Assembly (NCBI GenBank): GCA_963660905.1
Contig: CAVKZJ010000004.1
Coordinates: 31,947-95,946, forward strand
From: a bacterium
GTDB lineage: Bacteria; Bacillota_I; Bacilli_A; RFN20; CAG-288
DNA length: 64,000 bases
Direction of reading: 5' to 3'
Part shown: one piece after another, positions 309-48,936 of the stretch
Layout: the number at the start of each line of letters is the position of its first letter
Position numbering within the stretch: the stretch's first letter is position 1
Made by a program: the position numbers and the translations under genes
Notes under the pieces: generated by a model
Database searches by the model: none
Seen by the model: only the letters and a program-made list of their open reading frames with translations
What the model was told of the DNA's origin: nothing

Positions 309-1280
309 TCAGCCCTTAATGCCTGCACGACCAACGCCACGCATAATATATTTTCGGAAGATGACAAAGAGAAGGAAAAGAGGAACGGTAACCAAGACGG
401 TCGCGGCCATCTGATAGCCATAAGAGGTCATGCCTGTATCGGCATCCGTGAATGTCGAACCTCTCAAGCCGTTGGAAATCAGACGATAGCTCGCGGAATT
501 GGTGACCAAGTTCGGCCAGACATAGGAGTTCCATGTTCCCATGAATTTCAGAATCGTGATGGAAATCAATGTCGGCATGACAAGCGGAACAACCACCTTC
601 CACAAGAACGACCAATCGGATTTTCCGTCCACCTTGCTCGAAAGGTAGAGTTCATTGGGGATCTGCTTGATGTTCTGTCTAAGAAGATAGATGTAGAAGA
701 CAGAGATCCAGAACGGAACGATCATGGCCGCATAGGCCTGGATTCTCGTCTGATTCTGACTGATCCAGCCAAAGGATGCAACCGTGATATAGTTGGAGAT
801 GACCATCATCTCGCCTGGAATCATCATCGTGGTCAAGAAGACCATGAACAAGGCTTCTCTTCCCTTAAACTGCAGTCTGCCAAAGGCGTAGCCAGCCAAG
901 ATCGTCGTAATCAGGGTTCCCAAGGTGGAAACAGCCGCGACGATGATGGTGTTGAGCATATATTCGCCAAAGTCGAAATATTGGAAGACGTAGACGTAGT
1001 TGGACCACATGACGATGCTCGGATAGAATGTCTGTGTCGGGGCGATGACTTCCGAATTGTTCTTCAGGGATGTGATGATCATCCAATAAAATGGGAAGAT
1101 CATGAACAAGGCCAGGATGAGAATCACGACATAGAGAATGACAGTGGAAGCGACATTGGTGACCTTCTGTCTTTTCTGAATCGCTTCGACCGTCCGATCG
1201 GATTCAGCCAAGGAGAGGACAATGTTGTCATTCACCTTGATTTTAGAGAAATCAACATATTCTTTCTTTTTCATATTCAT
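309..1280 (-). CDS. carbohydrate-type ABC transporter permease (MalG/UgpE-like)
   Basis: 323 aa, multi-TM, EAA loop ELYLSSKVDGKSDWSFLWKVVVPLVMP. AGGAG lies upstream. The in-frame ATG at 1274 has better SD spacing than the one at 1280. Confidence 0.85.
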   Translation of the reverse strand: MNMKKKEYVDFSKIKVNDNIVLSLAESDRTVEAIQKRQKVTNVASTVILYVVILILALFMIFPFYWMIITSLKNNSEVIAPTQTFYPSIVMWSNYVYVFQYFDFGEYMLNTIIVAAVSTLGTLITTILAGYAFGRLQFKGREALFMVFLTTMMIPGEMMVISNYITVASFGWISQNQTRIQAYAAMIVPFWISVFYIYLLRQNIKQIPNELYLSSKVDGKSDWSFLWKVVVPLVMPTLISITILKFMGTWNSYVWPNLVTNSASYRLISNGLRGSTFTDADTGMTSYGYQMAATVLVTVPLFLLFVIFRKYIMRGVGRAGIKG

Positions 1281-1289
1281 TTCTCCTTA

Positions 1290-2372
1290 TCAATAATGAA
1301 CTTTCTTCTTGCTGACAAGGAACTGCAATCCCGTGAATGCCAAGATGACCAAGAAGAGGAAGACGGCTGCCGCAGCAGCAAGACTCGTATTCGTCGAAAG
1401 GTAGTCATAGATGTAATAAACAATCGTATACATGTTGTAGGAGCCATTGCTCGTACCCGGCCCATTGAACAAGCCGACGATGGATGTGTATTCCTTGAAT
1501 GCGCCGATGAAGCTCGTGACCACAATATATAAGATTTGCGGTGACATGAGCGGAACGGTGATTCTCCATAGGATTTTCTGGCTTCCGGCTCCATCGATCT
1601 TCGCGGCATTGTAGTATTGCTTATCGATGCCCTGAAGTCCGGAGAGGAAAATCAGAATCTTGAACGGAAGGCTCGACCAGATGATATAGACACAAAGAGG
1701 AACAAAGGCATTGACCGTCTTGGCGCCATAGATCCATGTCTGATCCAGGTGGAAGATATAGTTGAAGACACCATTCTTATCGAAGATGACCGAGAAGACC
1801 ATGCCGATGGCAATGGCATTGGTGACATAAGGAAGGAAGAAGACCGTCTGAAGGAATTTCTTGAAGAAGGGCAATTGATTCAAGGCAACGGAGATGAGAA
1901 GGGCAATCAATGTGGATAGAGGAACGGTGATGAAGACAATCAGGAAGGTATTCGGAATGGCGTAACGAACGAAATTCACTTCCTTTCCGCCGTTGGCTGT
2001 TGTCGTCAGGCCGAAGATGACACCGAAATTGTTCAGTGTCACGCCATCAAACGAGCCATCGATATAGGAGTAGTTGTCCAAGAAGGAAATGAAGATGGTA
2101 TTGATCAGCGGATAGAGAAGAAAGACGACCAAGAGAATGAGAACCGGAGCGATATAGAGCCAGGATTTCCAATTGTTCTTGGCAGCCACATCCTCGATGC
2201 CGGTAATCTTATAAGGCTTTGCATTGGCCTTGGGAGCTTTCACGAGTCGGACAATCGTATTGGTTTCCTCGTTGACCTCATCCTTGTAGTCAGGACGGGC
2301 CAAGAAGAAATCATTGCTGGCTGTCAGAGACTTCTGCTCTCTTAATTCAAGAGTGGGATCGCTCATAATCAT
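1290..2372 (-). CDS. carbohydrate-type ABC transporter permease (MalF/UgpA-like)
   Basis: 360 aa, multi-TM, EAA loop YYNAAKIDGAGSQKILWRITVPLMSP. Its ATG overlaps the TGA of the ATPase gene (ATGA at 2369-2372). Confidence 0.85.
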   Translation of the reverse strand: MIMSDPTLELREQKSLTASNDFFLARPDYKDEVNEETNTIVRLVKAPKANAKPYKITGIEDVAAKNNWKSWLYIAPVLILLVVFLLYPLINTIFISFLDNYSYIDGSFDGVTLNNFGVIFGLTTTANGGKEVNFVRYAIPNTFLIVFITVPLSTLIALLISVALNQLPFFKKFLQTVFFLPYVTNAIAIGMVFSVIFDKNGVFNYIFHLDQTWIYGAKTVNAFVPLCVYIIWSSLPFKILIFLSGLQGIDKQYYNAAKIDGAGSQKILWRITVPLMSPQILYIVVTSFIGAFKEYTSIVGLFNGPGTSNGSYNMYTIVYYIYDYLSTNTSLAAAAAVFLFLVILAFTGLQFLVSKKKVHY

Positions 2373-4300
2373 TTCCCTTCGTTGATTTCGGATAGATAGA
2401 TTCTCTGTTCGGTTTCATGATTGAAGACAAAGAATTTATCCTTCTTCACACCGAGACGAACCTTGCCCATGCTGATTTTTTCATCCGAGGAGATGATCGA
2501 CTTGAAAGTCGGCTTGGCACAATTCTCGTTCTTGGCAACGATGAAGAGATCTCTTCCAAGAATCTGAATCTGCTCGACATCGGCACTGAAGCCCATGGCA
2601 TCCTCGGGGATATTGGCAATCATGCCTTCCGGACGGATTGCGACATAGACTTTCTGATCTGCAATGTCGGAGGTCGTCTTATAAATGGCTTCATTTCCAA
2701 GATAGATGGTCTTATCCTTCACTTCACCCTCGAAGACATTGATCGGCGGGGTTCCCAGGAACTGACCGACGAAGAGGTTGGCTGGTGAATTGTAGACATT
2801 CTGCGGAGAATCGATCTGCTGTTCTTCGCCCAGTTTCATGACGACGATCTTATCCGAAATGGACATCGCCTCTTCCTGGTCATGGGTAACGAAGACCGTC
2901 GTGATGCCCGTTGTCTGCTGAATTCTTCTGATTTCTTCTCTTGTCTGCAATCTCAAGCGGGCATCCAAGTTGCTTAGCGGCTCATCAAGAAGAAGCATCT
3001 TCGGCTTCTTGACAAGGGCTCTTGCAATTGCGACACGCTGCTGCTGACCGCCGGAGAGCTGGCTTGGCTTTCTTTCGAGGTATTCATCGACCTGAACGAG
3101 CTTCGCTGTCTCATAGACGATTTCCTGTCTTTCAGCTTTCGTCAGTTTGCGGTGTGTGATGGCTGTTCTGGTATCATTCTGGATATTGACCAATCCTAAG
3201 GATTCCGTCAGGGCTTTCAAGCCTTTTTCGACATCCTCCTTGGATGACTTGGTGATGATAAGGAAGATCTTGAGCTGTTTCTTTTCATAATAAAGTTTCA
3301 GATCAGAGAAATTCAAGCCCAATTCCTTCAGGGTCTTCTTTATGGAAAGGGTGAATTCCTTATTTTCGACATGGGTGACAGCACTCGAGAAGGAGACGAA
3401 ATTCAAGGCGGCCTTGAATTCTTCTTCCATCTCTTCTCTCATGATGCTCGTGATATTCTTCACACGGGCAATGAGTTCATATCCAGTCTTGGATTTGATG
3501 ATGGTGACTGCCTCAGTTTTTCCATATTTCTCGGCAATCGAGCGAATCTTATTGATGTCCTCATCCATCTGATCGATGACAAAGGAAGACGGGAGTTTTC
3601 CGGTGAAATTGATATCGCACTTTTCCAATTCACTCTTGACCATGACATCCGCACGGATTTTGGAATCGAAAAGGGCTTCGCTTGTCTGCACTTTCTGTTC
3701 ATCAATCTGATAGGAGTTAGGGAAAACCTTGTTAAGATTATCCACAAAAATCTTTTTCACTTCTTCAGAGACATTGTGAAGAACAGCTTCCAATTGAAGA
3801 TTATTTCCTTCAAGAACATCCGTGAAGGAATACTGTCTCTTCGATAAGCCGATTTTCTTTGCCAAAGAGGAAACAGAGAGCAGAATGGACTCCACATCAT
3901 CCTTTTCGCCCATGACATAGAGGATGCTCAACGTGAAATCATAAAATGTGACAAGAGGAACTTCGACTTTCAAGTTCGTCAAAGGGAATTCAATGTTCTT
4001 ATAGATGGTCATATGCGGATAAAGGGCGTAGTTTTGGAAGACAAGACCGATGCCTCTTTTCTCCGGAGGAAGATTCGTCACTTCCTGATCACCGAACCAC
4101 ACTTCGCCAGAAGTCGGCTTGAGAAGGCCGGCAATCATATAGAGAGTGGTTGATTTTCCACATCCGGAAGGTCCCAATAAACCGACAAGCTGACCATCCG
4201 GAACTTCGAAGTCAAGGTTGTTCACGGCAATTGTATCGCGTATGTTCTTTTTCGGATTGCCAGGGAAGATTTTGGTTAAATTCTTTAATTTGATTTCCAT
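2369..4300 (-). CDS. ABC transporter ATP-binding protein (MalK/UgpC/MsmX family) with a ~273-aa insertion between Q-loop and signature motif
   Basis: Walker A GPSGCGKST, Q-loop LVFQNYALYPHMT, signature LSGGQQQRV, Walker B LLLDEPLSNLD, H-loop FVTHDQ, and a C-terminal MalK-type regulatory domain. AGGAG sits 8 nt upstream of the ATG. Residues ~112-384 have no counterpart in ordinary MalK proteins. Confidence 0.9.
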   Translation of the reverse strand: MEIKLKNLTKIFPGNPKKNIRDTIAVNNLDFEVPDGQLVGLLGPSGCGKSTTLYMIAGLLKPTSGEVWFGDQEVTNLPPEKRGIGLVFQNYALYPHMTIYKNIEFPLTNLKVEVPLVTFYDFTLSILYVMGEKDDVESILLSVSSLAKKIGLSKRQYSFTDVLEGNNLQLEAVLHNVSEEVKKIFVDNLNKVFPNSYQIDEQKVQTSEALFDSKIRADVMVKSELEKCDINFTGKLPSSFVIDQMDEDINKIRSIAEKYGKTEAVTIIKSKTGYELIARVKNITSIMREEMEEEFKAALNFVSFSSAVTHVENKEFTLSIKKTLKELGLNFSDLKLYYEKKQLKIFLIITKSSKEDVEKGLKALTESLGLVNIQNDTRTAITHRKLTKAERQEIVYETAKLVQVDEYLERKPSQLSGGQQQRVAIARALVKKPKMLLLDEPLSNLDARLRLQTREEIRRIQQTTGITTVFVTHDQEEAMSISDKIVVMKLGEEQQIDSPQNVYNSPANLFVGQFLGTPPINVFEGEVKDKTIYLGNEAIYKTTSDIADQKVYVAIRPEGMIANIPEDAMGFSADVEQIQILGRDLFIVAKNENCAKPTFKSIISSDEKISMGKVRLGVKKDKFFVFNHETEQRIYLSEINEGK

Positions 4301-4311
4301 TTTCTGAACTC

Positions 4312-5823
4312 CTATTTTGTACCATCACTGTCTACAGCATCATTCAATTTCAGTTTTTCATTTTCTCTTCTCGCCTTTCGGTCTTTGAAGAATGAAATGA
4401 AATATTTCACAAAATAACCGATGAAGAAAATAAGGAGGATGCATGTGACGACAATGAAATTGTCTAACGGATTGAAGGTCGTATATGTGTTATGGAAGCC
4501 ATTCGCACGGAAGGAAATGTAGAGAATTGCAAGCAAGAGGTCCAATCCGCCAAGATAGGCAATCGTCGCCGTCTTGAAGAATTTCTTCGGATTGACTCTT
4601 CTGAATTCATCATTTTTGTATTTGTTCTTTTCGTAGAGATAGAAAAGGGCAATTCCAAGGGCAACGGCCACGAGGTAGATCACCGTCGCAAGAACAATGA
4701 CAAGAATGACATTCGTCTTGGAAACCGCATCGATATCATCGCTCTCGCCGTTCTTGAAATAGACACAGCCGACACGTGCGACAAGACTCGTGTTCGGTTT
4801 GACTTTCGTGACGTTGTCTTCCAACACAGAATAGATCTGGATGGTCAAAGAAACGCCACGAAGAGAGAAGTTCTTGAGATTGTCCAATGAGAGATCCTTA
4901 ACCAAATATCTCGATTTCGAAACACCTTGCTTGATCATCTGGCTCGAGGTGATGGAGAAATCATTGATGCTGATTTCCTTGATCGTCCCATCCTTGTATT
5001 CGAAACGGAAATAAGCGGTCTGAACGTTTGTGATGGCGGACTGGATCACCGACTTTCCTTCATCAATGTCTTCTTTATTTTTCTTATAGACGCTGGCTTT
5101 CTGAATCTGATAGAGTTCGGCTGTCGTATTGTTATAGGTGACATCGAAGGTCGTATATGGACCATAATTATAGATGCCATCCAATGTCGCACTGAAATAT
5201 GGTTCGACGTCCACGCTTTTCGTCTTGGATAAATTGATTCTGCACTTATAGTTTTTATCCTTGTCAATTGTCATCTTCTTGTTTTCGTCGTTCTTGTATC
5301 CGAAAATGTTATAGATCGTCAGATAATCATTGCAGAATTGTTCTTCATCAGAAAAAACGAAATCAAAAGAGATTGTGATATAGGTCTGTCCCATCTCCAA
5401 TCCGATGCCGTCAAAAACATCGGTCACGGATTTCAGGGGCAGTTCCTCTGCAACTTCTCTGATTTCGTTTGTCGATTTATTCTGTAAATTGTAAACCGCA
5501 ACCAAAGGATAATACATATCCTCGTCTTTCGAACCATGATAACCTAAAATATAGCTTTCTTCGCTATCATCTACGTTAAAAGTGATAGTAAAGGATTGTG
5601 AATGATCTGTCTTTGTCGGGTTCGTGATCTTGACGACGAAAGCATCGTCAATATCCGTGATTTCCTTTGCTGTCGAATCATACATCGTCTTCTCGGCGAA
5701 GTGAACATTCCTGCTTCCGCTCATTTCAAGAGCAGAGGAAGTCGGCTGAAAGCCCAACAAGACGCCAAAGCAAAAACCTAACAACACACTCGTCAGCAGT
5801 GTACAAATCTTTCTCATTTTCAT
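4312..5823 (-). CDS. membrane-anchored surface protein of unknown function
   Basis: 503 aa with an N-terminal hydrophobic signal/anchor (ICTLLTSVLLGFCFGVLLGF). A ~340-aa Asn/Lys/Thr/Asp-rich soluble region follows, then three C-terminal TM helices and a basic tail. Its last codons contain the RBS of the ATPase gene, which starts 11 nt after its stop, so the two are co-transcribed. Confidence 0.7.
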   Translation of the reverse strand: MKMRKICTLLTSVLLGFCFGVLLGFQPTSSALEMSGSRNVHFAEKTMYDSTAKEITDIDDAFVVKITNPTKTDHSQSFTITFNVDDSEESYILGYHGSKDEDMYYPLVAVYNLQNKSTNEIREVAEELPLKSVTDVFDGIGLEMGQTYITISFDFVFSDEEQFCNDYLTIYNIFGYKNDENKKMTIDKDKNYKCRINLSKTKSVDVEPYFSATLDGIYNYGPYTTFDVTYNNTTAELYQIQKASVYKKNKEDIDEGKSVIQSAITNVQTAYFRFEYKDGTIKEISINDFSITSSQMIKQGVSKSRYLVKDLSLDNLKNFSLRGVSLTIQIYSVLEDNVTKVKPNTSLVARVGCVYFKNGESDDIDAVSKTNVILVIVLATVIYLVAVALGIALFYLYEKNKYKNDEFRRVNPKKFFKTATIAYLGGLDLLLAILYISFRANGFHNTYTTFNPLDNFIVVTCILLIFFIGYFVKYFISFFKDRKARRENEKLKLNDAVDSDGTK

Positions 5824-5934
5824 CGGTAAGTTATCCTTTTCGAAAAAATATCAGATTCATCCCGTCTCATTATTTTACCAAGAAGAAAAGTAGAACACAA
5901 ATAAATATACTAAGGTAGCCCTTTCTTCCGGATT

Positions 5935-5963
5935 ATTATACAATTCTCTTACATTTTTCAAAA
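5935..5963 (-). promoter_or_regulatory. putative sigma-A-type promoter for the 503-aa/ABC operon
   Basis: Minus strand reads TTTTGAAAAATGTAAGAGAATTGTATAAT. The -10 TATAAT is at 5935-5940. The -35-like element is TTGAAA (15-nt spacer) or TTTTGA (17-nt spacer). Confidence 0.4.
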
Positions 5964-5987: not shown

Positions 5988-7019
5988 TCACTTGTCCAGC
6001 CGGCTCTCAGAGACAAAAGAATGACTCACCTGAGTATCTTTCTCATGCTCAAGAGAGATTTCCGCAAGAGAATAATAGATTTTGTCATTCGTGATATCCA
6101 GATCATATAGCTGAAGCATATATTCCGGGAACGTCTGTTTCCCCTTGGTGAAGATCATCATGGTTGCCGAGACAAGAAGAGGAACACCCAAGGTGAAAAA
6201 GGATAAAAGAAGAATGCCAAGAATATAGATGGCCTCATAGGCAAGAAAACGTCCCGTCCGGATCGAAAGAAGAGAGGAATCCGCCTTTCCAATATGATAG
6301 ATCAGCATGCCGATAGTCTGTCTGTTTCTTTTGAAGATCAAAGGCGGAACAAGAAAGACAACAACAGCAGATAACACGACAGCGACAGGCAATTCGACAA
6401 AGACGACCATATTCGACATGAACTTCGTCGATTCCATGTATTTCGGAAAGCAGGAGAGAAGATAGCTTCGACATTGATTGTCCAAAAACGGCTGATAACA
6501 GACTTCATTATATATTTTATAGCTATCCGTCTGATTGAATTCCGGATTCATCACGATGTCCGCTCCCTCATGAACAAAAAGAGAAACGCCATCATTTCTC
6601 ACCTCCAATCGGAAAGAATCATAAGCATCCTGAACAACTTTTCCATTCTCGGGATTCTCCTCTTTCACAAAAGCGATGAAGGAAGAGATAATCTCCTGAT
6701 AGGTCGTCATCTTTTCCTTTGCCGATGTATCCTGATTGGAATAATAGCTGACCACATCATATCGCTGCTGATTGTTTTCGATATAGAGGCCACTGTCGAG
6801 CATGATATGATCGACATATTCCTTTCGATTCCGATAGAAGGAAGTCGAATTGAGAATTCCTCTCATCATCAGGAAAAAGAGGAGGCCAAAAACGATGGCC
6901 AAGAGAAAGTCGACGAACTTGGAGAAGATTCTTCTCGACATCTGTGCTTTCTTATATTGAATATGAATTCCTTCTTCTTTCTTCTCTTCCTTCATCGAAT
7001 AAAGATCTTTTTCAGGCAT
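5988..7019 (-). CDS. RDD-like polytopic membrane protein with ~150-aa inserted soluble domain (paralogue 2)
   Basis: 343 aa. N-terminal R-x7-D plus TM (SRRIFSKFVDFLLAIVFGLLFFL), a soluble insert at ~res 54-200, TM helices, and KRNRQTIGMLIYHIG resembling the RDD-family GxTxG segment. Its ATG overlaps the upstream stop by 8 nt (7012-7019). Confidence 0.6.
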   Translation of the reverse strand: MPEKDLYSMKEEKKEEGIHIQYKKAQMSRRIFSKFVDFLLAIVFGLLFFLMMRGILNSTSFYRNRKEYVDHIMLDSGLYIENNQQRYDVVSYYSNQDTSAKEKMTTYQEIISSFIAFVKEENPENGKVVQDAYDSFRLEVRNDGVSLFVHEGADIVMNPEFNQTDSYKIYNEVCYQPFLDNQCRSYLLSCFPKYMESTKFMSNMVVFVELPVAVVLSAVVVFLVPPLIFKRNRQTIGMLIYHIGKADSSLLSIRTGRFLAYEAIYILGILLLSFFTLGVPLLVSATMMIFTKGKQTFPEYMLQLYDLDITNDKIYYSLAEISLEHEKDTQVSHSFVSESRLDK

Positions 7020-8112
7020 GGTCTACTTTATATCCTTTTAATAATGAAAGCTTTTCTAATTCGCTTTTCTTAATATAACATGTTTTCGTCAATCGGTCCG
7101 ACAATCCGATTCCATAGGAATCAAAACAGAGATAGACAAAGGAAATCAGCGACAGGAGAGTCCCGACAAGCGTACAGGTAAGAAGCCCGGGAATCGAAAA
7201 GAGCGTCGCAAATTCAATGAACAGCATCGGAAGGAAGATCATCAAGGAGAGATGGAAGAAAAAATAGAAAAAGAAGGGGAGAATCCGCTCTTTTCTTTTC
7301 AGAATCTTCAGATTGTCCAATCCGACCTTCTCATATCCCAATGCCATCATGGAGATGGTCTTTCCTCTTCTGGAGAGCATCGGAATCAGAAGAAAATAGA
7401 CAAGGCAGCCCAAGGTATAGGAAAGATAGCAGTCCAGAGAGAGGATCCACCGATTCGTCTTTTCCAATTGAGTATTCTCTTCTTTATATGTGCGATAGAG
7501 GAAAAGAGGAGAGGAAGAATCCAATTTTTCATTCTGAAGAAGATCTTCAATCATTGCGGAATACAAATTCGGAAAGACGGAATTGAGGATTTTCTGATAG
7601 ATTGTCTCTCCCCTTGAGGAAAGAGTATCCTTGCTATCCAACAAGGGAGAAAGAAGTTCCTGATATTCCTCTTTCAGATACACGTTCTCTGAAATCTCAA
7701 AATATCCGTTTTTATCATTGTTCTTATAAAAATCCAGATAGGTCTTTATCTCTTCATGGAGAAGGTCGATGAAATAATGATGAAAATAATCATGGCTCTC
7801 CTCATGCCTGAGAAGAGAAAGAACGAATTGGTTTCCGGAATACGTCAGACAGGAAGTGAAGGAATCATCCGCATTCTCTTTTTCCAAAAGTCCGTTCCGA
7901 TAAAGAACTTCCACCATCTGAACCTGATTCTCATTTCTTTTCTTTTCGTTTTCATCATATCCGGAAATGGATCTGGAGACCGGGAAAAGAATGACAGAGA
8001 AAAAGAAAAGGGATAAAAAAAAGTTCAAAAACAGGTCGCAAAAATGAAGAAGGACCCTTCCTCCTTTTTTCAGCGGATGGATATCGACGTATTCAGGATT
8101 CATTTGACTCAT
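7012..8112 (-). CDS. RDD-family membrane protein with ~175-aa inserted soluble domain (paralogue 1)
   Basis: 366 aa. GGRVLLHFCDLFLNFFLSLFFF supplies the R and first D with TM1. The insert spans ~res 47-221. RRGKTISMMALGYEKV is followed by further TMs, and GLSDRLTKTCYI supplies the final D of the RDD pattern. ATGA overlap with the upstream SIR2-like gene (8109-8112). Confidence 0.65.
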   Translation of the reverse strand: MSQMNPEYVDIHPLKKGGRVLLHFCDLFLNFFLSLFFFSVILFPVSRSISGYDENEKKRNENQVQMVEVLYRNGLLEKENADDSFTSCLTYSGNQFVLSLLRHEESHDYFHHYFIDLLHEEIKTYLDFYKNNDKNGYFEISENVYLKEEYQELLSPLLDSKDTLSSRGETIYQKILNSVFPNLYSAMIEDLLQNEKLDSSSPLFLYRTYKEENTQLEKTNRWILSLDCYLSYTLGCLVYFLLIPMLSRRGKTISMMALGYEKVGLDNLKILKRKERILPFFFYFFFHLSLMIFLPMLFIEFATLFSIPGLLTCTLVGTLLSLISFVYLCFDSYGIGLSDRLTKTCYIKKSELEKLSLLKGYKVDHA

Positions 8113-9410
8113 AATTGTTCGAGATAGGAACCGATTTCGCTGTATTCATCAATCCAGATGACAATCAGATCGAAGGTGAAGAAATAGGCTGTCAGATCCT
8201 TATAGACGGTCTCGGAATAGCCTTCAATCTTCTTTAAGAAGATGAAATTGAATTTCATATAGTTGTCAGCCAATTCGAGCAGTCGCTTCATATCCGGATC
8301 GGTCAAGGAGATGCCGATGAAGATGCAGACATTGAATTTGAAATCATGGAGTTGCTTGCTGATGGACCAACTATAGGGATTATTATAAAGATAATAGTAT
8401 TCAGATTCATTGAAAATCAGAGAATCCGTATATTTCTTTTCATTGTATTTGTCAAAAGGAAGAAGTCCGTGAACATGATAGATATCCACTTTGGCTTCCT
8501 TGTCGACAAAGGAATTGTCATCATAGACAACGGTATAGCGGATTTTTCTCTTCTTGAGGAGATATTCCAGATTCGTATCATAATTGTAGGTAATGACACT
8601 CGTCTTATTCTTCTTCTGCAGATAATCGACCAATCGATACAAGGTCGCATCCGGGTCATCAAAGCCTTTGGCTTCCTTGAAGAGATAGAGTTCTCGATTT
8701 AAGGACTTATAGGAATCAAAACCCGATGTCTTCATGATCATGGAAGAAGTGAAAAGTTCCTTTCCGACATAGGTCTGAATCTCTTGAGCAAATTTGTAGT
8801 CTCCCTTATAGAAGTCATTATTGAGGGAATCAAGCAGTTCCTGCCAGTTCTTCGCACCATAGTCCTGATTGATGCCGGCTCCTAGGACAAGATCCACATT
8901 CAGTTTCGTCGTATAAAGACGAATTAGCCACAAGACAAAAGAGGAAGCCGAATCATTGATGTTCTCATTCTTCTTGTCATGGGAAAGATGATAGAGAAGA
9001 TCATCCGTCACCGAAGTCTTCTTCAGGTTGTAGCGATAGGATACTTTCACTCCCTCCATGAATCCAATGGCATAGAAGTCCGATGAGGAAAAATAAATAT
9101 TCATGCTCGCCTCTGGAAGATAGAAGTCATAGTCCATGTTCTTCACTTTGACAATGTTGACATTGCCCATGACGTCCATGTTCTCAGGATTGAACCGAGC
9201 CAGCGAGGGATAGATATGTGCGACATATTTATGGATATGGTCCTTCTTGGATCGGACGATGGCCTTGAAATTGCACGTCGGATCAAAATGGAAACCAAAA
9301 GACCTTAAGACAATGCTGTCATAGGAAACATTGGAATGATAAAAAAGAAAGAGGAGAACAAGAAGTGCTTTCTTCTGAAAGATATAGTCGTCTTTTTTTG
9401 ATTTGTCCAT
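8109..9410 (-). CDS. SIR2-like (SIR2_2 family) domain protein with uncharacterised ~170-aa N-terminal domain
   Basis: 433 aa. All SIR2_2 landmarks occur in order: LVLGAGINQDYGAKNWQELL, VITYNYDTNLEYLL (catalytic-type Asn), DIYHVHGLL (catalytic-type His), LIFNESEYYY and VCIFIGISLTDPDMKRLL. Residues 1-170 match nothing I recognise. Confidence 0.8.
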   Translation of the reverse strand: MDKSKKDDYIFQKKALLVLLFLFYHSNVSYDSIVLRSFGFHFDPTCNFKAIVRSKKDHIHKYVAHIYPSLARFNPENMDVMGNVNIVKVKNMDYDFYLPEASMNIYFSSSDFYAIGFMEGVKVSYRYNLKKTSVTDDLLYHLSHDKKNENINDSASSFVLWLIRLYTTKLNVDLVLGAGINQDYGAKNWQELLDSLNNDFYKGDYKFAQEIQTYVGKELFTSSMIMKTSGFDSYKSLNRELYLFKEAKGFDDPDATLYRLVDYLQKKNKTSVITYNYDTNLEYLLKKRKIRYTVVYDDNSFVDKEAKVDIYHVHGLLPFDKYNEKKYTDSLIFNESEYYYLYNNPYSWSISKQLHDFKFNVCIFIGISLTDPDMKRLLELADNYMKFNFIFLKKIEGYSETVYKDLTAYFFTFDLIVIWIDEYSEIGSYLEQL

Positions 9411-9444: not shown

Positions 9445-9480
9445 AGAAAAAATCCTACCCCTTGATCAGAGAGGTAGGAT
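9445..9480 (-). terminator. rho-independent terminator after tuf
   Basis: Minus strand reads ATCCTACC-(13 nt)-GGTAGGAT followed by TTTTTCTTTC, beginning 28 nt after the tuf stop. Confidence 0.75.
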
Positions 9481-14835: not shown

Positions 14836-15149
14836 AAAGAAGTACCTCCTTTTTTGAGTAGAACCATTATATACAAATTCCAACTCAAAATATATAGTTA
14901 TGTATATTTTCGCCAAAGAACCTTGGATCTATCTTTCAATCTCATGGGGCAAGATATCGTCAAATAAGCAATGCTGTTCTTTTGCATAATCCAATTCAGA
15001 TTCCGCATTTGGCTAAGCCTCTTCTATTTTTCATAACGTGGAGCCCATAATCTGAAGCACCGAGAAAGAATCTGACACAACATTATAAACCCCTGTGAAT
15101 TCACCCATGGTATCCATGGTTAATTTAAAGAGGCTTTTTGAACCGAAAA

Positions 15150-15743
15150 TCATTTTTGAATTCTTTTCGAATATTCGGTTTTATCTTTTTCTGTTATTTC
15201 TCTTATGACTCTGCAAGGATTTCCAACGGCTATTACATTTGAAGGAATATCCTTTGTGACTATGCTACCGGTTCCAATGATTGTATTATCACCAATTGTA
15301 ACTCCTGGAACGACTTTGACATCTCCTCCCAGCCATGCATTTTTTCCAATGTGAATTGGCTTTGAATCACATCCGCCATTTATTCTTTCCGTTGCATCTA
15401 TTGAATGATTTGCAGCATATAAACCAACATTTGGACCAATCAGAGTATGGGATCCTATTCTTACTTCTGCACAATCGAGAATAATACAGCCAAAATTGAT
15501 ATAAACATCATCTCCAATTGTAATATTTTTGCCGAATTCACATCTGAAATCAGGCTCAATCCAAACATTTTTGCCGACTTTTTTAAATAATCGCCGCATG
15601 ATCTGATTTCTCAATTCGATTTCTTCATCTTCAGTTTTATTGTAGGCTTTAAAAAGTTTCTTGGCAGCAACGCGACGATTGAATAAATCTTCATCAAAAT
15701 CGTTATATGTTATTCCTTTTTGTGATTTTTCCCATTCAGTCAT
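15150..15743 (-). CDS. maa: maltose/galactoside O-acetyltransferase (hexapeptide-repeat)
   Basis: 197 aa with the N-terminal Mac domain (MTEWEKSQKGITYNDFDEDL...). Left-handed beta-helix hexapeptide repeats follow (IGDDVYINFGCIILD, IGSHTLIGPNVGLY, IGKNAWLGGDVKVVPGVTIGDNTIIGTGSIV). Confidence 0.88.
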   Translation of the reverse strand: MTEWEKSQKGITYNDFDEDLFNRRVAAKKLFKAYNKTEDEEIELRNQIMRRLFKKVGKNVWIEPDFRCEFGKNITIGDDVYINFGCIILDCAEVRIGSHTLIGPNVGLYAANHSIDATERINGGCDSKPIHIGKNAWLGGDVKVVPGVTIGDNTIIGTGSIVTKDIPSNVIAVGNPCRVIREITEKDKTEYSKRIQK

Positions 15744-15769
15744 AATTCACTCCTAACTGATATATTTAT

Positions 15770-16252
15770 TTAAAAAGTAAGTCTCATTTGATACCATACT
15801 ACATTTCCATGCACGGATTCTGAAATACCTTCATTTTTAAAACCTAATTTTGAATAGAATGGAATCAACTTCTCTTTACAGGTTAAAACAAGACCTTTTC
15901 TTCCTTGTTTTTTTGCGTCATCAATTGCACATTGGATAAGGTGACTTGCATATCCGTGCTTTCGATAATCGGGATGAGTATTCACACCGAAAATCATTTG
16001 CCATTTTCCAGCATCATTATGCATTTCCGGCATTTTATACATATCATCGTTTAAATCTTTTTCATCAGTGACGAATCCATCAACAAATGCGATCAATCTA
16101 TTGGAATCGCACATTAGCCAAAAGTGATTCCTGTAATATTGAAGTCAACCTTTGAAATCCTCTTCATTCGCAGCTTCCAAAGGCGGAAAACATTGCGCTT
16201 CGAGTTCTGTGATAATTGAAATGTCTTCATCCGTTGCATATCGTATTTGCAT
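15770..16252 (-). pseudogene. GNAT-family N-acetyltransferase interrupted by an in-frame TGA at codon 36
   Basis: The ORF track gives only 15770-16114. The same frame continues upstream as MQIRYATDEDISIITELEAQCFPPLEAANEEDFKG-TGA(16145-16147)-LQYYRNHFWLMCDSN... from the ATG at 16250-16252. The C-terminal part has the GNAT acetyl-CoA region (HPDYRKHGYASHLIQCAIDDAKKQGRKGLVLTC). Confidence 0.7.
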
Positions 16253-16447
16253 ATTATTTCTCTTTCCATATTTAATATCATTTATTATATAGTAAATCAA
16301 TTAATGATTTCCTGCTTATCTTTTCGAGATGATCAACTTATGGAAAAAGATTTACTGATTTATGTTTTTCATTTTTTCTTTTTATCGCCATATAGTACTG
16401 GAAACGTTTCTAAGTAAGCAATACTCGCAAGCGACATTTCTGATTTT

Positions 16448-16475
16448 GACAAAAAAACTGCCCGAAGGCAGTTTT
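16448..16475 (-). terminator. rho-independent terminator after tpiA (UUCG tetraloop)
   Basis: Minus strand reads AAAACTGCC-TTCG-GGCAGTTTT followed by TTTGTC, immediately after the tpiA stop at 16477. Confidence 0.85.
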
Positions 16476-16476
16476 A

Positions 16477-17238
16477 TCAGATATTTTCGAGCAGTTCCTT
16501 GAAGGATTCGCTCTTGAGGCTTGCTCCGCCGACAAGGGCACCATCGACATCCTCAGCCTGAAGATAGTCATGGATATTGTTCGGCTTGACGCTTCCGCCA
16601 TAGAGAATCTGTATTTTCTGGGAAGCGACCTTGCCGAAGAGTTCCGAAATCAGATCACGGATATAGGAGCAGATATCTTCGGCGATTTCGACAGAGGCAT
16701 TCTTTCCTGTGCCGATGGACCAGACAGGCTCATAGGCCAAGACGACATAAGGAATCTCATCCTTGGTCAGGTTCATCAAACCGGTGACGACCTGCTCACG
16801 GATGACATCCTTGGTGATGCCGGCATCATATTCCTTGGCTGTTTCACCGACGCAATAGATGACATGCATCTCCTTGGAGACCAAGGTCTTGATCTTTCGA
16901 TTGCAGATGAAGGAAGTCTCTCCTTCATATGTTCTTCTTTCGGAATGACCGATGATGGCCCAATTGACATCGATTTCCTTGAGCATATCGGCTGAAACAT
17001 TGGAGGTATAGGCTCCATGATCCATATAATGGCAGTCCTGACTCGCAACAATGAGTCCATGGGCATGCTTTTTGACGGCAGCAAGAGAAAGGTAGGTCGG
17101 TGCAACGCCCAACATGACGCCCTTGGATCGGGCTATTTTGACTAAGGAAGCATCCTTGACATCCTCGCAGAACTGATTCGCTTCTGCGATGGTGTGGTTC
17201 ATCTTCCAGTTGCCCATCAAAAACTTTTTTCTAGACAT
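16477..17238 (-). CDS. tpiA: triosephosphate isomerase
   Basis: 253 aa. GNWKMN, IIGHSERR and AYEPVWSIGTG motifs. Confidence 0.98.
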   Translation of the reverse strand: MSRKKFLMGNWKMNHTIAEANQFCEDVKDASLVKIARSKGVMLGVAPTYLSLAAVKKHAHGLIVASQDCHYMDHGAYTSNVSADMLKEIDVNWAIIGHSERRTYEGETSFICNRKIKTLVSKEMHVIYCVGETAKEYDAGITKDVIREQVVTGLMNLTKDEIPYVVLAYEPVWSIGTGKNASVEIAEDICSYIRDLISELFGKVASQKIQILYGGSVKPNNIHDYLQAEDVDGALVGGASLKSESFKELLENI

Positions 17239-31636: not shown

Positions 31637-33031
31637 ATGCGGATATCTTCATTCATAAATCGTATCCAGCGATTCGTAGAAAGTCTCTTCTTCCCTCTTT
31701 TGATTGGCTTATTTTCCTTTCTATGCTGGGCAGTTCCCATGCAGTATGCATTTCCATTTTTGATTCTTTATGTCCTTTGCTGCATTCTTCCGCTATTCTG
31801 TCAGAACGGAAAAGGATATCTTCCTCTCTTCTTCTTCATGATCATCGTCAGCAACAGGGACATTCATTTCATGGGCGGCATTTCCCCTGTGTTCATCATC
31901 GCACTTTCTTTTGCCACCATCTCATTGATTGCATATATAATTGTTCATAAGCCAAAATTTTCATCCGGCAGCATTTTCTTTTCCTTGCTTGCCCTTTATT
32001 GCATCTTCCTTCTTTCCTTTTTTGTCGCCAGCATAAACAATACGAATACGGGAAAAACAGGCATTTTATATCTTATCGGCTTTTTCGTGCTGTTGGCATT
32101 CCATGCACTGATCAATTCCGTCATAGGCCAGGAGGAAAGTCTTCAGTATTTCTCGATGACGTATTCCATCTTTGCCGTCTATGCTGCCCTGGAGGTGTTT
32201 ATCGTTCTCCTGAAAGATTCCTCTTTGGCCTTGGCAAGCAGCAATTTTTCTCTCGGATGGTCCTACACTCGAGAAACCGTTTCCAGTTTTTTGACGTTCT
32301 CTCTTCCTTTCTTCTGCATTCTCATCCATGAGAAAAAGCCTTTCTGGATCCTGCCGATGATCTTTGTCTTCACCGCCTTGCTCTTCCTTTCGACGGATTC
32401 CGGACTTTTATCCATTCTTCTTTTTGTCATTCCGCTCGTCATTCTGACATTGAAGGACTATTCAAAATATTCGCCTTTCTTCATCATGTTCGTTCTTCTT
32501 CTGATCGGTTCTGTCTTCGGCATCCTTTTTGCTGTCAATCCAGATTTCAATCAAAGAATCGTCACAGCCGTTCAGCGACTGAATTTCGTTTCGGATTTTT
32601 CGATTGATTTCTATTCTCCTTATGTTAAAAAATTCCTATTGAACCCTCCGCTTGGCTCTTCGATCATCAGCCTTGTCAATGAAAATGGAACACTGAGCCT
32701 TGCCAATTCCACCCTTCTTTCGACAGCCATCATGGGCGGAATCATCGGACTTGTGAGTTATCTCATCTTCAAGTTCTTTCTCTATTGGAATTTTGTCCAA
32801 AAGCAGTTGGAAGGAAAAAGTTTCTATCTCATCTTCCTTTTGAATATCGAGCTGATCGGATTGATTGACAATACAATCTACAACCTAGCGATCCTAACCG
32901 TCTTCCTTTTATCCACCAGTGCCTTCTTGCAATCGAACAAACCAGATGATGTTCGAATCCATGCGGATTATTTTATGAACAAGGATCTGCCAAGAATGGA
33001 TCCGACCACTCGATTCGAAATCGAATCATGA
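31637..33031 (+). CDS. polytopic membrane protein, O-antigen ligase/polymerase (Wzy)-like
   Basis: 464 aa with 10 or more TM helices and one larger loop. It is divergent from the YfhO-like gene. The family assignment comes from topology and context only. Confidence 0.4.
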   Translation: MRISSFINRIQRFVESLFFPLLIGLFSFLCWAVPMQYAFPFLILYVLCCILPLFCQNGKGYLPLFFFMIIVSNRDIHFMGGISPVFIIALSFATISLIAYIIVHKPKFSSGSIFFSLLALYCIFLLSFFVASINNTNTGKTGILYLIGFFVLLAFHALINSVIGQEESLQYFSMTYSIFAVYAALEVFIVLLKDSSLALASSNFSLGWSYTRETVSSFLTFSLPFFCILIHEKKPFWILPMIFVFTALLFLSTDSGLLSILLFVIPLVILTLKDYSKYSPFFIMFVLLLIGSVFGILFAVNPDFNQRIVTAVQRLNFVSDFSIDFYSPYVKKFLLNPPLGSSIISLVNENGTLSLANSTLLSTAIMGGIIGLVSYLIFKFFLYWNFVQKQLEGKSFYLIFLLNIELIGLIDNTIYNLAILTVFLLSTSAFLQSNKPDDVRIHADYFMNKDLPRMDPTTRFEIES

Positions 33032-36894: not shown

Positions 36895-37155
36895 AAAAAA
36901 AGTCCTCAAACTCCTAAAAAGAAGTCTAAGGACGCATGACACGTGGTACCACCTTAGTTCATCATCTACTATCAACCTTCATAGATGACCTTCAGAATAT
37001 TTTCAGATTCCTAGCGATGACGGGCTTCCCGGCAATCATTACTTTATTTCCTGATTGCAGCTCCAAGGCTCGTTCCCAGTCCTTAATCACCGTCCTCCCA
37101 TCAACGACGGCTCGCTTTGGATGTATCTACTGGTACTACTCCTCTTCGTAGCTTT
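36895..37155 (-). promoter_or_regulatory. T-box riboswitch leader (specifier read as CGA, Arg) with terminator
   Basis: Features on the minus strand: Stem I with GAAGAGGAGTAGTA (K-turn/S-turn side); AG bulge/distal loop AGCGAG...GTTGATGGGAG; and specifier loop GAA-CGA-G (CGA at 37070-37072). The T-box sequence is AACTAAGGTGGTACCACGTG (36940-36959). The terminator is GTCCTTAGAC...GTTTGAGGAC plus T7 (36895-36933). Confidence 0.85.
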
Positions 37156-37162
37156 GCCCGAA

Positions 37163-48567: not shown

Positions 48568-48811
48568 ACAGCGCCTCCAAGGAAGTAAAACGAATTTATT
48601 ATACCCATATTCCGATTCTTTTCCTATAAAGAAATATTTCATGAAAAAGAAAAGAAAATCTCAAAATATAAAAGAATCTTTTCATCCTTTGCCAATCTTA
48701 TAAAACATTCAAAAAAGAAAGAAGAGCGCCTATGAAACCTCTTTCTTGAAAATATTGTTAAGCAATTACCCTCTCTATGATAAACTAGCAGTGTCGTTTC
48801 ACATCATCGAT

Positions 48812-48880
48812 TCTTATATAATAGCTTTAATAAGGTAAGCGAGTTTCTACCTCTGGGCCGTAAATCCGGAGACTATGAGA
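48812..48880 (+). promoter_or_regulatory. purine riboswitch aptamer, guanine class
   Basis: TCTTATA-TAAT-AGCTTTAATAAGGTAAGC-GAGTTTCTACC-TCTGGGCCGTAAATCCGGAGA-C-TATGAGA. It has P1 pairing TCTTATA/TATGAGA and conserved J2/3 GTTTCTACC and L3 CCGTAAAT. There is a C immediately 5' of the P1 3' strand (the C74 position, which indicates guanine specificity). Confidence 0.9.
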
Positions 48881-48936
48881 TCAAAAGAAAAATCTTCTTT
48901 TTCTTTTGGTTATCATCTTAAAAAGGTGGTACATCC

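Follow-up and report, generated by a model that had tools for sequence, protein, structure and literature searches.

An immune-type SIR2 gene beside tuf behaves as a core gene of the RFN20 lineage of Bacilli and is separable from its RDD-like membrane protein neighbours

The window analysed here is a stretch of 64,000 nucleotides from a bacterium of the Bacilli lineage RFN20 (assembly GCA_963660905.1, contig CAVKZJ010000004.1, positions 31,947–95,946). Beside tuf, it contains three minus-strand genes in the open reading frame (ORF) listing: a SIR2-like gene (8109..9410; 433 amino acids, soluble product) and the genes of two RDD-like membrane proteins, M1 (7012..8112; 366 amino acids) and M2 (5988..7019; 343 amino acids). 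A first-pass annotation had proposed this trio as a candidate undescribed, defence-like system, and had inferred that the membrane proteins sense and the SIR2 protein acts on NAD. Comparison among related genomes leads to a different picture. The SIR2-like protein belongs to the structural class of ThsA, DSR2, KomC and SIR2-HerA with its catalytic Asn and His residues intact, and its gene is inherited vertically, is under strong purifying selection and behaves like part of the core genome of the lineage. The reading favoured here, at a probability of about one half, is that an immune-type SIR2 has become fixed as a core gene of RFN20, and that the RDD pair forms an envelope module of its own, which evolves fast and can be parted from SIR2.

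The C-terminal part of the SIR2-like protein (residues ~171–433; 8112..8900, minus strand) is an immune-type SIR2 domain of the SIR2_2 family, as identified by Pfam, Foldseek and a broadened profile. The Pfam match (PF13289) covers residues 271–381 (E=1.4e-12; 48.3 bits, cut-off 24.5). NCBIfam returns no match, and PADLOC returns weak ThsA-type SIR2 matches alone (model positions 108–273 of 478). With the AlphaFold model of the protein (predicted local distance difference test, pLDDT, 71), the top Foldseek matches in the PDB are all ThsA, KomC, DSR2 or SIR2-HerA (E 5e-10 to 2e-6), and the best 50 matches are without exception defence SIR2 proteins. PDB sequence searches with a clade-only profile, or with the SIR2 domain alone, found no relative. 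A profile broadened with remote relatives (A4; 30 diverse relatives) matches Bacillus cereus ThsA at E=2e-14 and FAM118B at E=5e-11, and canonical sirtuins only weakly (sirtuin-1 and sirtuin-5; E=0.6–3). Identification as a canonical sirtuin deacetylase is rejected on these fold and profile grounds.

In the A4 alignment, the TYNYD motif pairs with TTNYD of B. cereus ThsA (6LHX) and YHVHG pairs with YKMHG, so that N276 corresponds to ThsA N112 and H314 to ThsA H152, in agreement with the catalytic positions named by the first-pass annotation. The entry for the ThsA N112A mutant (8BTO) has TTAYD at the position matching N276. The GAG loop (G177-A178-G179), N276, D278, H314 and others are invariant across the 30 diverse relatives, and the same loop, N276, D278, E282, H312/H314 and other motif residues are invariant in the clade as well as in remote relatives. 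Conservation of the catalytic residues suggests that the protein has NAD+ hydrolase activity. Hydropathy reveals no transmembrane (TM) segment; a hydrophobic N-terminal helix lies below TM-like hydropathy, and a membrane location of the protein is rejected. Neither Pfam nor PADLOC finds a TIR, SLOG, HerA, Argonaute or STAND domain in the protein or in its immediate neighbours, and the reported absence of the partners of known SIR2 systems is thereby borne out.

Residues 1–170 (8901..9410, minus strand) form a distinct N-terminal domain. Modelled separately with AlphaFold, this part is a confidently predicted α/β domain (pLDDT 86). It has no Pfam family in any of the 30 relatives, and no significant match among PDB structures (best YaeQ, E=0.15) or in BFVD (best E=0.012). 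Its alignment to the N-terminal domains of remote relatives is weak (that of P0161, for example, spans query residues 15–432), and many of these relatives retain a D…ExK motif; in the A4 alignment this motif is degenerate in the RFN20 clade, which has K49-A-I51 instead. The remote D…ExK motif and weak nuclease-fold matches hint at a degenerate PD-(D/E)xK fold, an assignment that is not claimed here.

A large-database search with the SIR2-like protein returned 309 clusters; the 120 that were listed comprise proteins of 414–463 amino acids with 94–100% query coverage and 59–99% identity, from uncultured Bacilli named Enterosoma, Erysipelotrichaceae or ‘Mollicutes’. With one genome per species, counted among genomes that carry the gene, at least 114 GTDB species of a single uncultured gut lineage, RFN20, have it at full length. 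Carriers include Clostridium sp. CAG:288, UBA7642 (= Candidatus Enterosoma; order RFN20, family CAG-288; PMC8035907) and Ca. Onthovivens. When 50%-identity representatives are searched exhaustively, the entire clade falls into one cluster (736 bits), and the next full-length relative beyond it scores 168 bits, in the SIR2 domain only. Across the 18 species with complete tuf, fusA and SIR2 genes, pairwise identity of the SIR2-like proteins tracks that of EF-Tu, the tuf product (Spearman 0.87). The ratio of nonsynonymous to synonymous substitutions (dN/dS) of the SIR2-like gene is 0.021 (dS 0.76), 0.065 and 0.093 in three comparisons, in the same range as that of tuf (0.011–0.076), fusA and rpsG.

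The surroundings of the gene are unlike a defence island. It stands among housekeeping genes (str-operon genes, ATP-binding cassette (ABC) importers, malQ/miaB or psuG/psuK), both in the window and in related loci, and the variable defence-island setting for which the first-pass annotation had suggested a check was not found there. A scan of viral contigs found none that encodes a SIR2 relative. Among the matches listed by a tuf-anchored metagenome scan there were only tuf genes of ≤78% identity from other lineages, and an exact look-up of the EF-Tu protein returned two contigs, one with the same cassette and the other ending right after tuf. Because distribution, congruence with tuf, low dN/dS, housekeeping neighbours and absence from viral contigs concur, the gene is regarded as a lineage core gene, although not necessarily a universal one in RFN20. 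Patchiness, horizontal transfer and defence-island context, which generally mark mobile defence genes, are not seen among the carriers that were counted. The locus thus largely behaves as a conserved core locus, the outcome that the first-pass annotation had named as counting against its own proposal, and it is not regarded as a mobile three-gene defence cassette.

In some species, the intergenic space between tuf and the SIR2-like gene is an insertion site (loci L012, 5449–6831; L020, 4528–5910; L025, L046, L016 and L045). The insert of L012 encodes an AAA_14 + DUF4143 ATPase, and other species have unannotated ORFs of 174–621 amino acids at this place. Many records of metagenome-assembled genomes with an RFN20-type locus bear the titles of unrelated taxa, such as Bacteroides uniformis, Alistipes onderdonkii, Roseburia hominis and Parasutterella (L002, L010, L011, L024, L026, L027, L029, L041, L063, L064, L066, L068, L073, L075 and L078). 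Because their contigs share the same Bacilli-like gene order, these records look like mislabelled bins.

Outside the clade, a related SIR2 domain occurs in >1000 50%-identity clusters (E<1e-10). The best-scoring remote relatives listed are mostly solitary proteins of ~430–490 amino acids in which an N-terminal domain of ~170 residues precedes SIR2_2, the same two-domain architecture and length as in RFN20, with 21–28% identity to the SIR2-like protein. PADLOC recognises only their SIR2 part, and weakly. The region of P0161 holds AbiEii and a phage integrase, P0129 is solitary, and no RDD neighbour stands beside any of the remote relatives examined. One relative in A4 has an N-terminal TIR_2 domain in place of the orphan N-terminal domain (E=6e-15), and P0200 is a 1011-amino-acid Roc-COR GTPase–SIR2 fusion.

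Of characterised proteins, ThsA (6LHX from B. cereus, 8WC0 from Escherichia coli) is the best structural and profile match. Common to both are the GAG NAD loop and the catalytic Asn and His of the TNYD and xHG motifs, and the C-terminal helix–strand element of the SIR2-like protein also aligns (ThsA residues 8–277), although sequence similarity is detected only with the broadened profile. However, ThsA has a SLOG/Macro sensing domain, which Pfam does not find here, whereas the SIR2 domain of the RFN20 protein is C-terminal, behind the orphan domain; Thoeris also includes a ThsB/TIR partner, and here the neighbours are tuf, M1, M2, D503 (a surface protein gene described below) and ABC importer genes. 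ThsA is patchily distributed, in contrast to the vertically inherited, core-like RFN20 gene. DSR2/DSR1, SIR2-HerA and KomC (Kongming) have the same immune-type fold (Foldseek E 1e-8 to 1e-6), and NAD+ depletion is presumed to be their common chemistry with the SIR2-like protein. DSR1/DSR2 differ in being ~1000 amino acids or more in length, with an N-terminal SIR2 domain and a large C-terminal sensor. SIR2-HerA and KomC act with HerA or KomA/KomB, none of which is present here, and the SIR2-like gene is outside a defence island; likewise, the HerA, Argonaute/APAZ and STAND NTPase partners or fusions of SIR2-HerA, pAgo-SIR2 and Avs5 are absent from the protein and from the flanking genes. PADLOC gives no system-level match to the locus, and a literature search on SIR2 together with RDD proteins in defence found none, in line with the first-pass annotation, which knew of no described system of such composition. 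The vertebrate non-canonical sirtuins FAM118A/B offer a parallel, as they are immune-type SIR2 proteins vertically retained in a large lineage and FAM118B is found by the A4 profile. Filament formation and NAD processing have been reported for FAM118B (PMC12700824). The FAM118 proteins differ in being eukaryotic and in their flanking regions.

The RDD-like proteins have a common plan, consisting of one TM segment, an acidic loop of 150–180 amino acids predicted to lie outside, a basic loop, and two or three further TM segments. In M1, TM1 (residues 27–45) is followed by a 182-residue acidic loop, predicted to be external, and three more TM segments; the architecture of M2 is the same. Like members of the RDD family (PF06271, for example YckC-like proteins), M1 and M2 have an N-terminal R…D before TM1 and a G-x-T-x-G-M loop after TM2, and one source names an M homologue ‘RDD family membrane protein YckC’. 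They differ from that family in the 150–180-residue insertion between TM1 and TM2, and in the occurrence of their genes in tandem pairs or arrays beside lipoprotein and ABC importer genes. Their own RDD scores are below the Pfam cut-off of 24.1 (M2, 22.8 bits; M1, 14.3 bits), although PF06271 is precomputed for 18 of the 32 M-family homologues returned, and RDD motifs are discernible in the alignment of the M-family hidden Markov model (HMM), with three or four predicted TM segments. The paralogy of M1 and M2 that the first-pass annotation described is visible only at the profile level: BLASTP detects no similarity between them (E=1.7), but iterated HMMs started from M1 or from M2 converge on the same 128 ORFs in 81 loci, which indicates that the two are distant paralogues. 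The M proteins evolve faster than the SIR2-like protein, with 22–40% identity where the latter has 60–75%, and a dN two to three times as high.

The M family is a lineage-specific, expanding family of membrane proteins. In L056, L061 and L079, it is amplified in tandem to four or five copies after the SIR2-like gene; L040, L042, L043 and L047 are also listed with amplification, and in some species extra copies lie on the opposite strand ~6 kb upstream.

Downstream of M2 in the window lies D503 (4312..5823, minus strand), which encodes a surface protein of ~500 amino acids with a signal-anchored or lipoprotein-like N-terminus, a conserved KNKYKNDEFRRVN motif and three C-terminal TM segments. 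It has no Pfam family, and PADLOC gives nothing credible for M1, M2 or D503. A CUT1-type ABC importer follows (309..4300, minus strand), consisting of a MalK/UgpC-like ATPase of 643 amino acids with a large insertion (2369..4300, minus strand) and two UgpA/UgpE-like permeases (1290..2372 and 309..1280, minus strand); in most species it is syntenic with the SIR2-like gene and the M pair. The insertion in the ATPase, of ~235 residues, divides ABC_tran into matches at residues 26–140 and 376–634. ATPases of ‘type A’ modules have 631–658 amino acids, and those of ‘type B’ modules ~480–585.

The three genes of the trio overlap, as the first-pass annotation stated and as the ORF listing and direct reading of the sequence confirm. 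At the SIR2/M1 junction, the TGA stop of the first gene lies inside the ATG of the second in an ATGA overlap (...caattATGAgtcaa); the M1/M2 junction reads ccATGCCTGAaaa, with an 8-nucleotide overlap, ATGCCTGA. Overlapping or tight junctions are common across the window, a trait of a compact genome and not peculiar to these genes, and because of this frequency the overlaps are weak as sole evidence of functional coupling.

Among related genomes, the SIR2-like gene is followed by an M pair on the same strand in 52 of 75 informative species loci, with a median gap of 1 nucleotide between SIR2 and M (≤30 nucleotides in 41 of the 52), so the trio does co-occur beyond the source genome. However, an M gene is absent from 18 of the 75 loci, and these lie together without interruption in the SIR2 tree, as a subclade of ~17 species in which the SIR2-like gene occurs without an M pair at the locus and precedes malQ and a MiaB-like gene, psuG/psuK, or other genes. 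In the one assembly of this subclade checked for an M pair away from SIR2 (GCA_963632335.1), the SIR2-like gene (L064, followed by psuG/psuK) and an M pair (L089) are on separate contigs. The M pair of L089 adjoins a divergently oriented D503 homologue (349–1881; hmmsearch E=1e-103) that has an LLSGC lipobox, and no ABC genes are nearby; D503 thus accompanies the M pair even away from both the SIR2-like gene and the ABC genes. Elsewhere, an M-M-ABC block is divergent from SIR2 (L030, L031), or the M pair is deleted and the ABC genes directly follow SIR2 (L020, L027).

A comparison of L002 with L003 illustrates how these parts come apart. The two are 93% identical over 8.3 kb (rpsG-fusA-tuf-SIR2) until ~20 nucleotides before the SIR2 stop codon, and without homology past this breakpoint (~8280 in L002, equivalent to ~8130 in the window), where a module of M-M-D503-ABC (643 amino acids) is swapped for one of M-M-ABC (~506 amino acids)-permeases-solute-binding protein. 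The junction is a sharp recombination breakpoint, and what lies beyond it is a replaceable surface and transport cassette. The arrangement rpsG-fusA-tuf-SIR2-M-M-(D503)-ABC occurs in distant branches (L062, L046 and the Enterosoma group). The synteny survey therefore indicates that SIR2, the M pair (with or without D503) and the CUT1-type ABC genes formed an ancestral cluster, each link of which has been broken several times, and the M pair is tied to the lipoprotein and ABC module at least as much as to the SIR2-like gene.

The analysis shows which domains and catalytic residues the protein has, how its gene is distributed, selected and arranged with its neighbours, and that it can be separated from them; the enzymatic activity, its trigger and the role of the membrane pair are proposed as follows. 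The SIR2-like protein would be a soluble two-domain enzyme composed of the orphan N-terminal domain and a SIR2 domain of the ThsA/DSR2 class. Its gene would descend from the large family of solitary proteins with this architecture, which elsewhere stand alone or in mobile or defence contexts; in RFN20 (Enterosoma/CAG-288/Onthovivens) it has become vertically inherited and strongly constrained. The protein may be a latent NAD+-cleaving enzyme, an NADase or possibly an ADP-ribosyl transferase, held inactive until it is switched on through the N-terminal domain; as in ThsA, KomC and FAM118, oligomerisation would be the probable means. Such an enzyme could give each cell an autonomous, built-in NAD+ switch that responds to infection or stress. 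The RDD genes, fast-evolving and with a large predicted surface loop, would be part of the downstream module of lipoprotein and ABC importer genes; they would usually be co-transcribed with the SIR2-like gene owing to ancestral synteny in a compact genome, and not as obligate partners.

Several points weigh against this reading. A fixed immune gene in >100 species at a dN/dS of ~0.02 is unusual, and the odds of a built-in immune role and of a purely physiological one are about even. The count covers species that carry the gene, which need not be universal in RFN20. The NADase activity is one that we infer from conserved residues, and no fold relative of the N-terminal domain can be recognised in the PDB or BFVD. 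In addition, the near-zero-gap adjacency of SIR2 and the M pair persists where the tuf neighbourhood has been lost and where the ABC genes have moved upstream (L068–L080), and could reflect a real functional link.

The alternative that survives best, although held here as a minority possibility, is that the SIR2-like protein is a domesticated, non-immune enzyme with a housekeeping NAD+-dependent role in a reduced-genome lineage, such as the regulated modification of a cellular target by ADP-ribosylation or deacylation, or control of NAD+ turnover and salvage. Since the ancestral cluster includes membrane proteins and a sugar-type ABC importer, this role may be tied to membrane transport. The spread over at least 114 species, the congruence with tuf, a dN/dS comparable to that of translation factors and the ancestral gene order in distant branches are all in keeping with such a role; loss of D…ExK from the N-terminal domain suggests a changed function, and retention of an immune-type SIR2 in vertebrates as FAM118 sets a precedent (PMC12700824). 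However, profile and fold place the protein with NADase/immune SIR2 proteins and not with deacylase sirtuins, the Zn-ribbon and substrate-binding features of canonical sirtuins are absent, no metabolic partner gene is consistently adjacent where synteny breaks, and the immune-type SIR2 group is reported to be overwhelmingly immune (bioRxiv 10.1101/2024.09.18.613514).

It is unlikely that SIR2, M1 and M2 constitute a chromosomally fixed three-component defence in which the surface-exposed RDD pair senses phage adsorption or injection at the naked membrane of these wall-less bacteria and the cytoplasmic SIR2-like protein depletes NAD+ in an abortive infection. The immune structural class and intact catalytic residues agree with it, as do operonic overlaps or near-zero gaps kept through several rearrangements, the predicted external loops of 150–180 residues in the M proteins, and the rapid evolution and recombinational replacement of these proteins, as expected of phage-facing sensors. 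Yet wall-less bacteria are expected to have fast-evolving surface proteins whatever their function, and neither M1 nor M2 has a PADLOC match. Moreover, the SIR2-like gene stands alone among housekeeping genes in the subclade of ~17 species, lies on a different contig from the M pair in one genome, and is inherited vertically under core-like constraint, whereas M pairs may be divergent from it or deleted, are exchanged together with the ABC importer and not with SIR2, and are amplified in tandem beside ABC genes (L056, L061, L079). This sensor–effector model, the one put forward in the first-pass annotation, thereby loses its main comparative support; of the undescribed defence system that it envisaged, the immune-class SIR2 and the usual adjacency of the M pair stand, and the core-like behaviour, housekeeping context and separability of the trio speak against the rest.

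A related idea, decidedly unlikely in the light of the same evidence, is that a core-fixed SIR2 NADase is wired to a hypervariable surface RDD pair as vertically inherited membrane-surveillance immunity in wall-less RFN20 bacteria. The pair would report phage attack or envelope damage, and the SIR2-like protein, via its orphan N-terminal domain, would collapse NAD+. If true, this would represent a new architecture of membrane sensor and SIR2 effector, and a rare instance of housekeeping-like conservation in an abortive-infection effector. A catalytically inactive SIR2 domain, in a protein with a structural or scaffolding role, is very improbable, since invariance of the catalytic positions in the clade and in remote relatives at a dN/dS of ~0.02 argues for retained chemistry, despite the low confidence of the central SIR2 domain model (pLDDT<50 at residues 208–229 and 315–357) and the failure of clade-profile sequence searches to reach a PDB relative.

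Immune-type SIR2 proteins are generally seen as mobile, patchily distributed anti-phage effectors. The core-gene behaviour of this one is the surprising element, as an immune-class SIR2 is conserved here in >100 species, under translation-factor-like constraint, beside tuf in a reduced and probably wall-less genome. Fixation of such a gene in RFN20, the reading favoured here, may be a bacterial domestication of an immune NADase, parallel to that of vertebrate FAM118, or may show that an abortive-infection effector can become fixed in the core genome of a lineage. The clade-specific subfamily and its orphan N-terminal domain are new variants within the known SIR2_2 family. In a survey of SIR2 proteins, all known antiphage members fall in one clade, with neighbourhoods enriched in defence systems (bioRxiv 10.1101/2024.09.18.613514). 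The present locus indicates that composition, that is, a SIR2 gene with unknown neighbours and overlapping genes, does not by itself suffice to identify a defence system: comparison among genomes overturned the proposed boundaries by placing the RDD pair with the lipoprotein/ABC module no less than with SIR2.

Of the boundaries that the first-pass annotation had drawn around the trio, the terminator of tuf stands. It is an intrinsic terminator (9452..9480, minus strand) with a stem of 11 bp at 9480–9452 and a T-run after it, and it parts tuf from the SIR2-like gene. The promoter-like element on the other side, a hexamer pair upstream of the next gene (TTGAAA-18-AATAAT; 5932..5961, minus strand), is present as a consensus match only, and such matches occur in the region at chance frequency (15 found, 13 expected).

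Other genes of the window have functions in glycolysis, purine synthesis and similar processes, and include uvrAB and whiA. A 464-amino-acid ORF at 31637–33031 (plus strand) lies opposite in strand to its neighbours and has no Pfam match at E≤1e-5. The stretch at ~15000–16500 has a low GC content (0.33–0.35, compared with ~0.45 elsewhere) and a negative GC skew, and contains a maltose/galactoside O-acetyltransferase-like gene and ~730 bp without ORFs of ≥150 amino acids. A T-box leader is located at 36925–37158 (minus strand; 115 bits), and a purine riboswitch at 48794–48895 (plus strand; 68.5 bits) lies upstream of purine biosynthesis genes.

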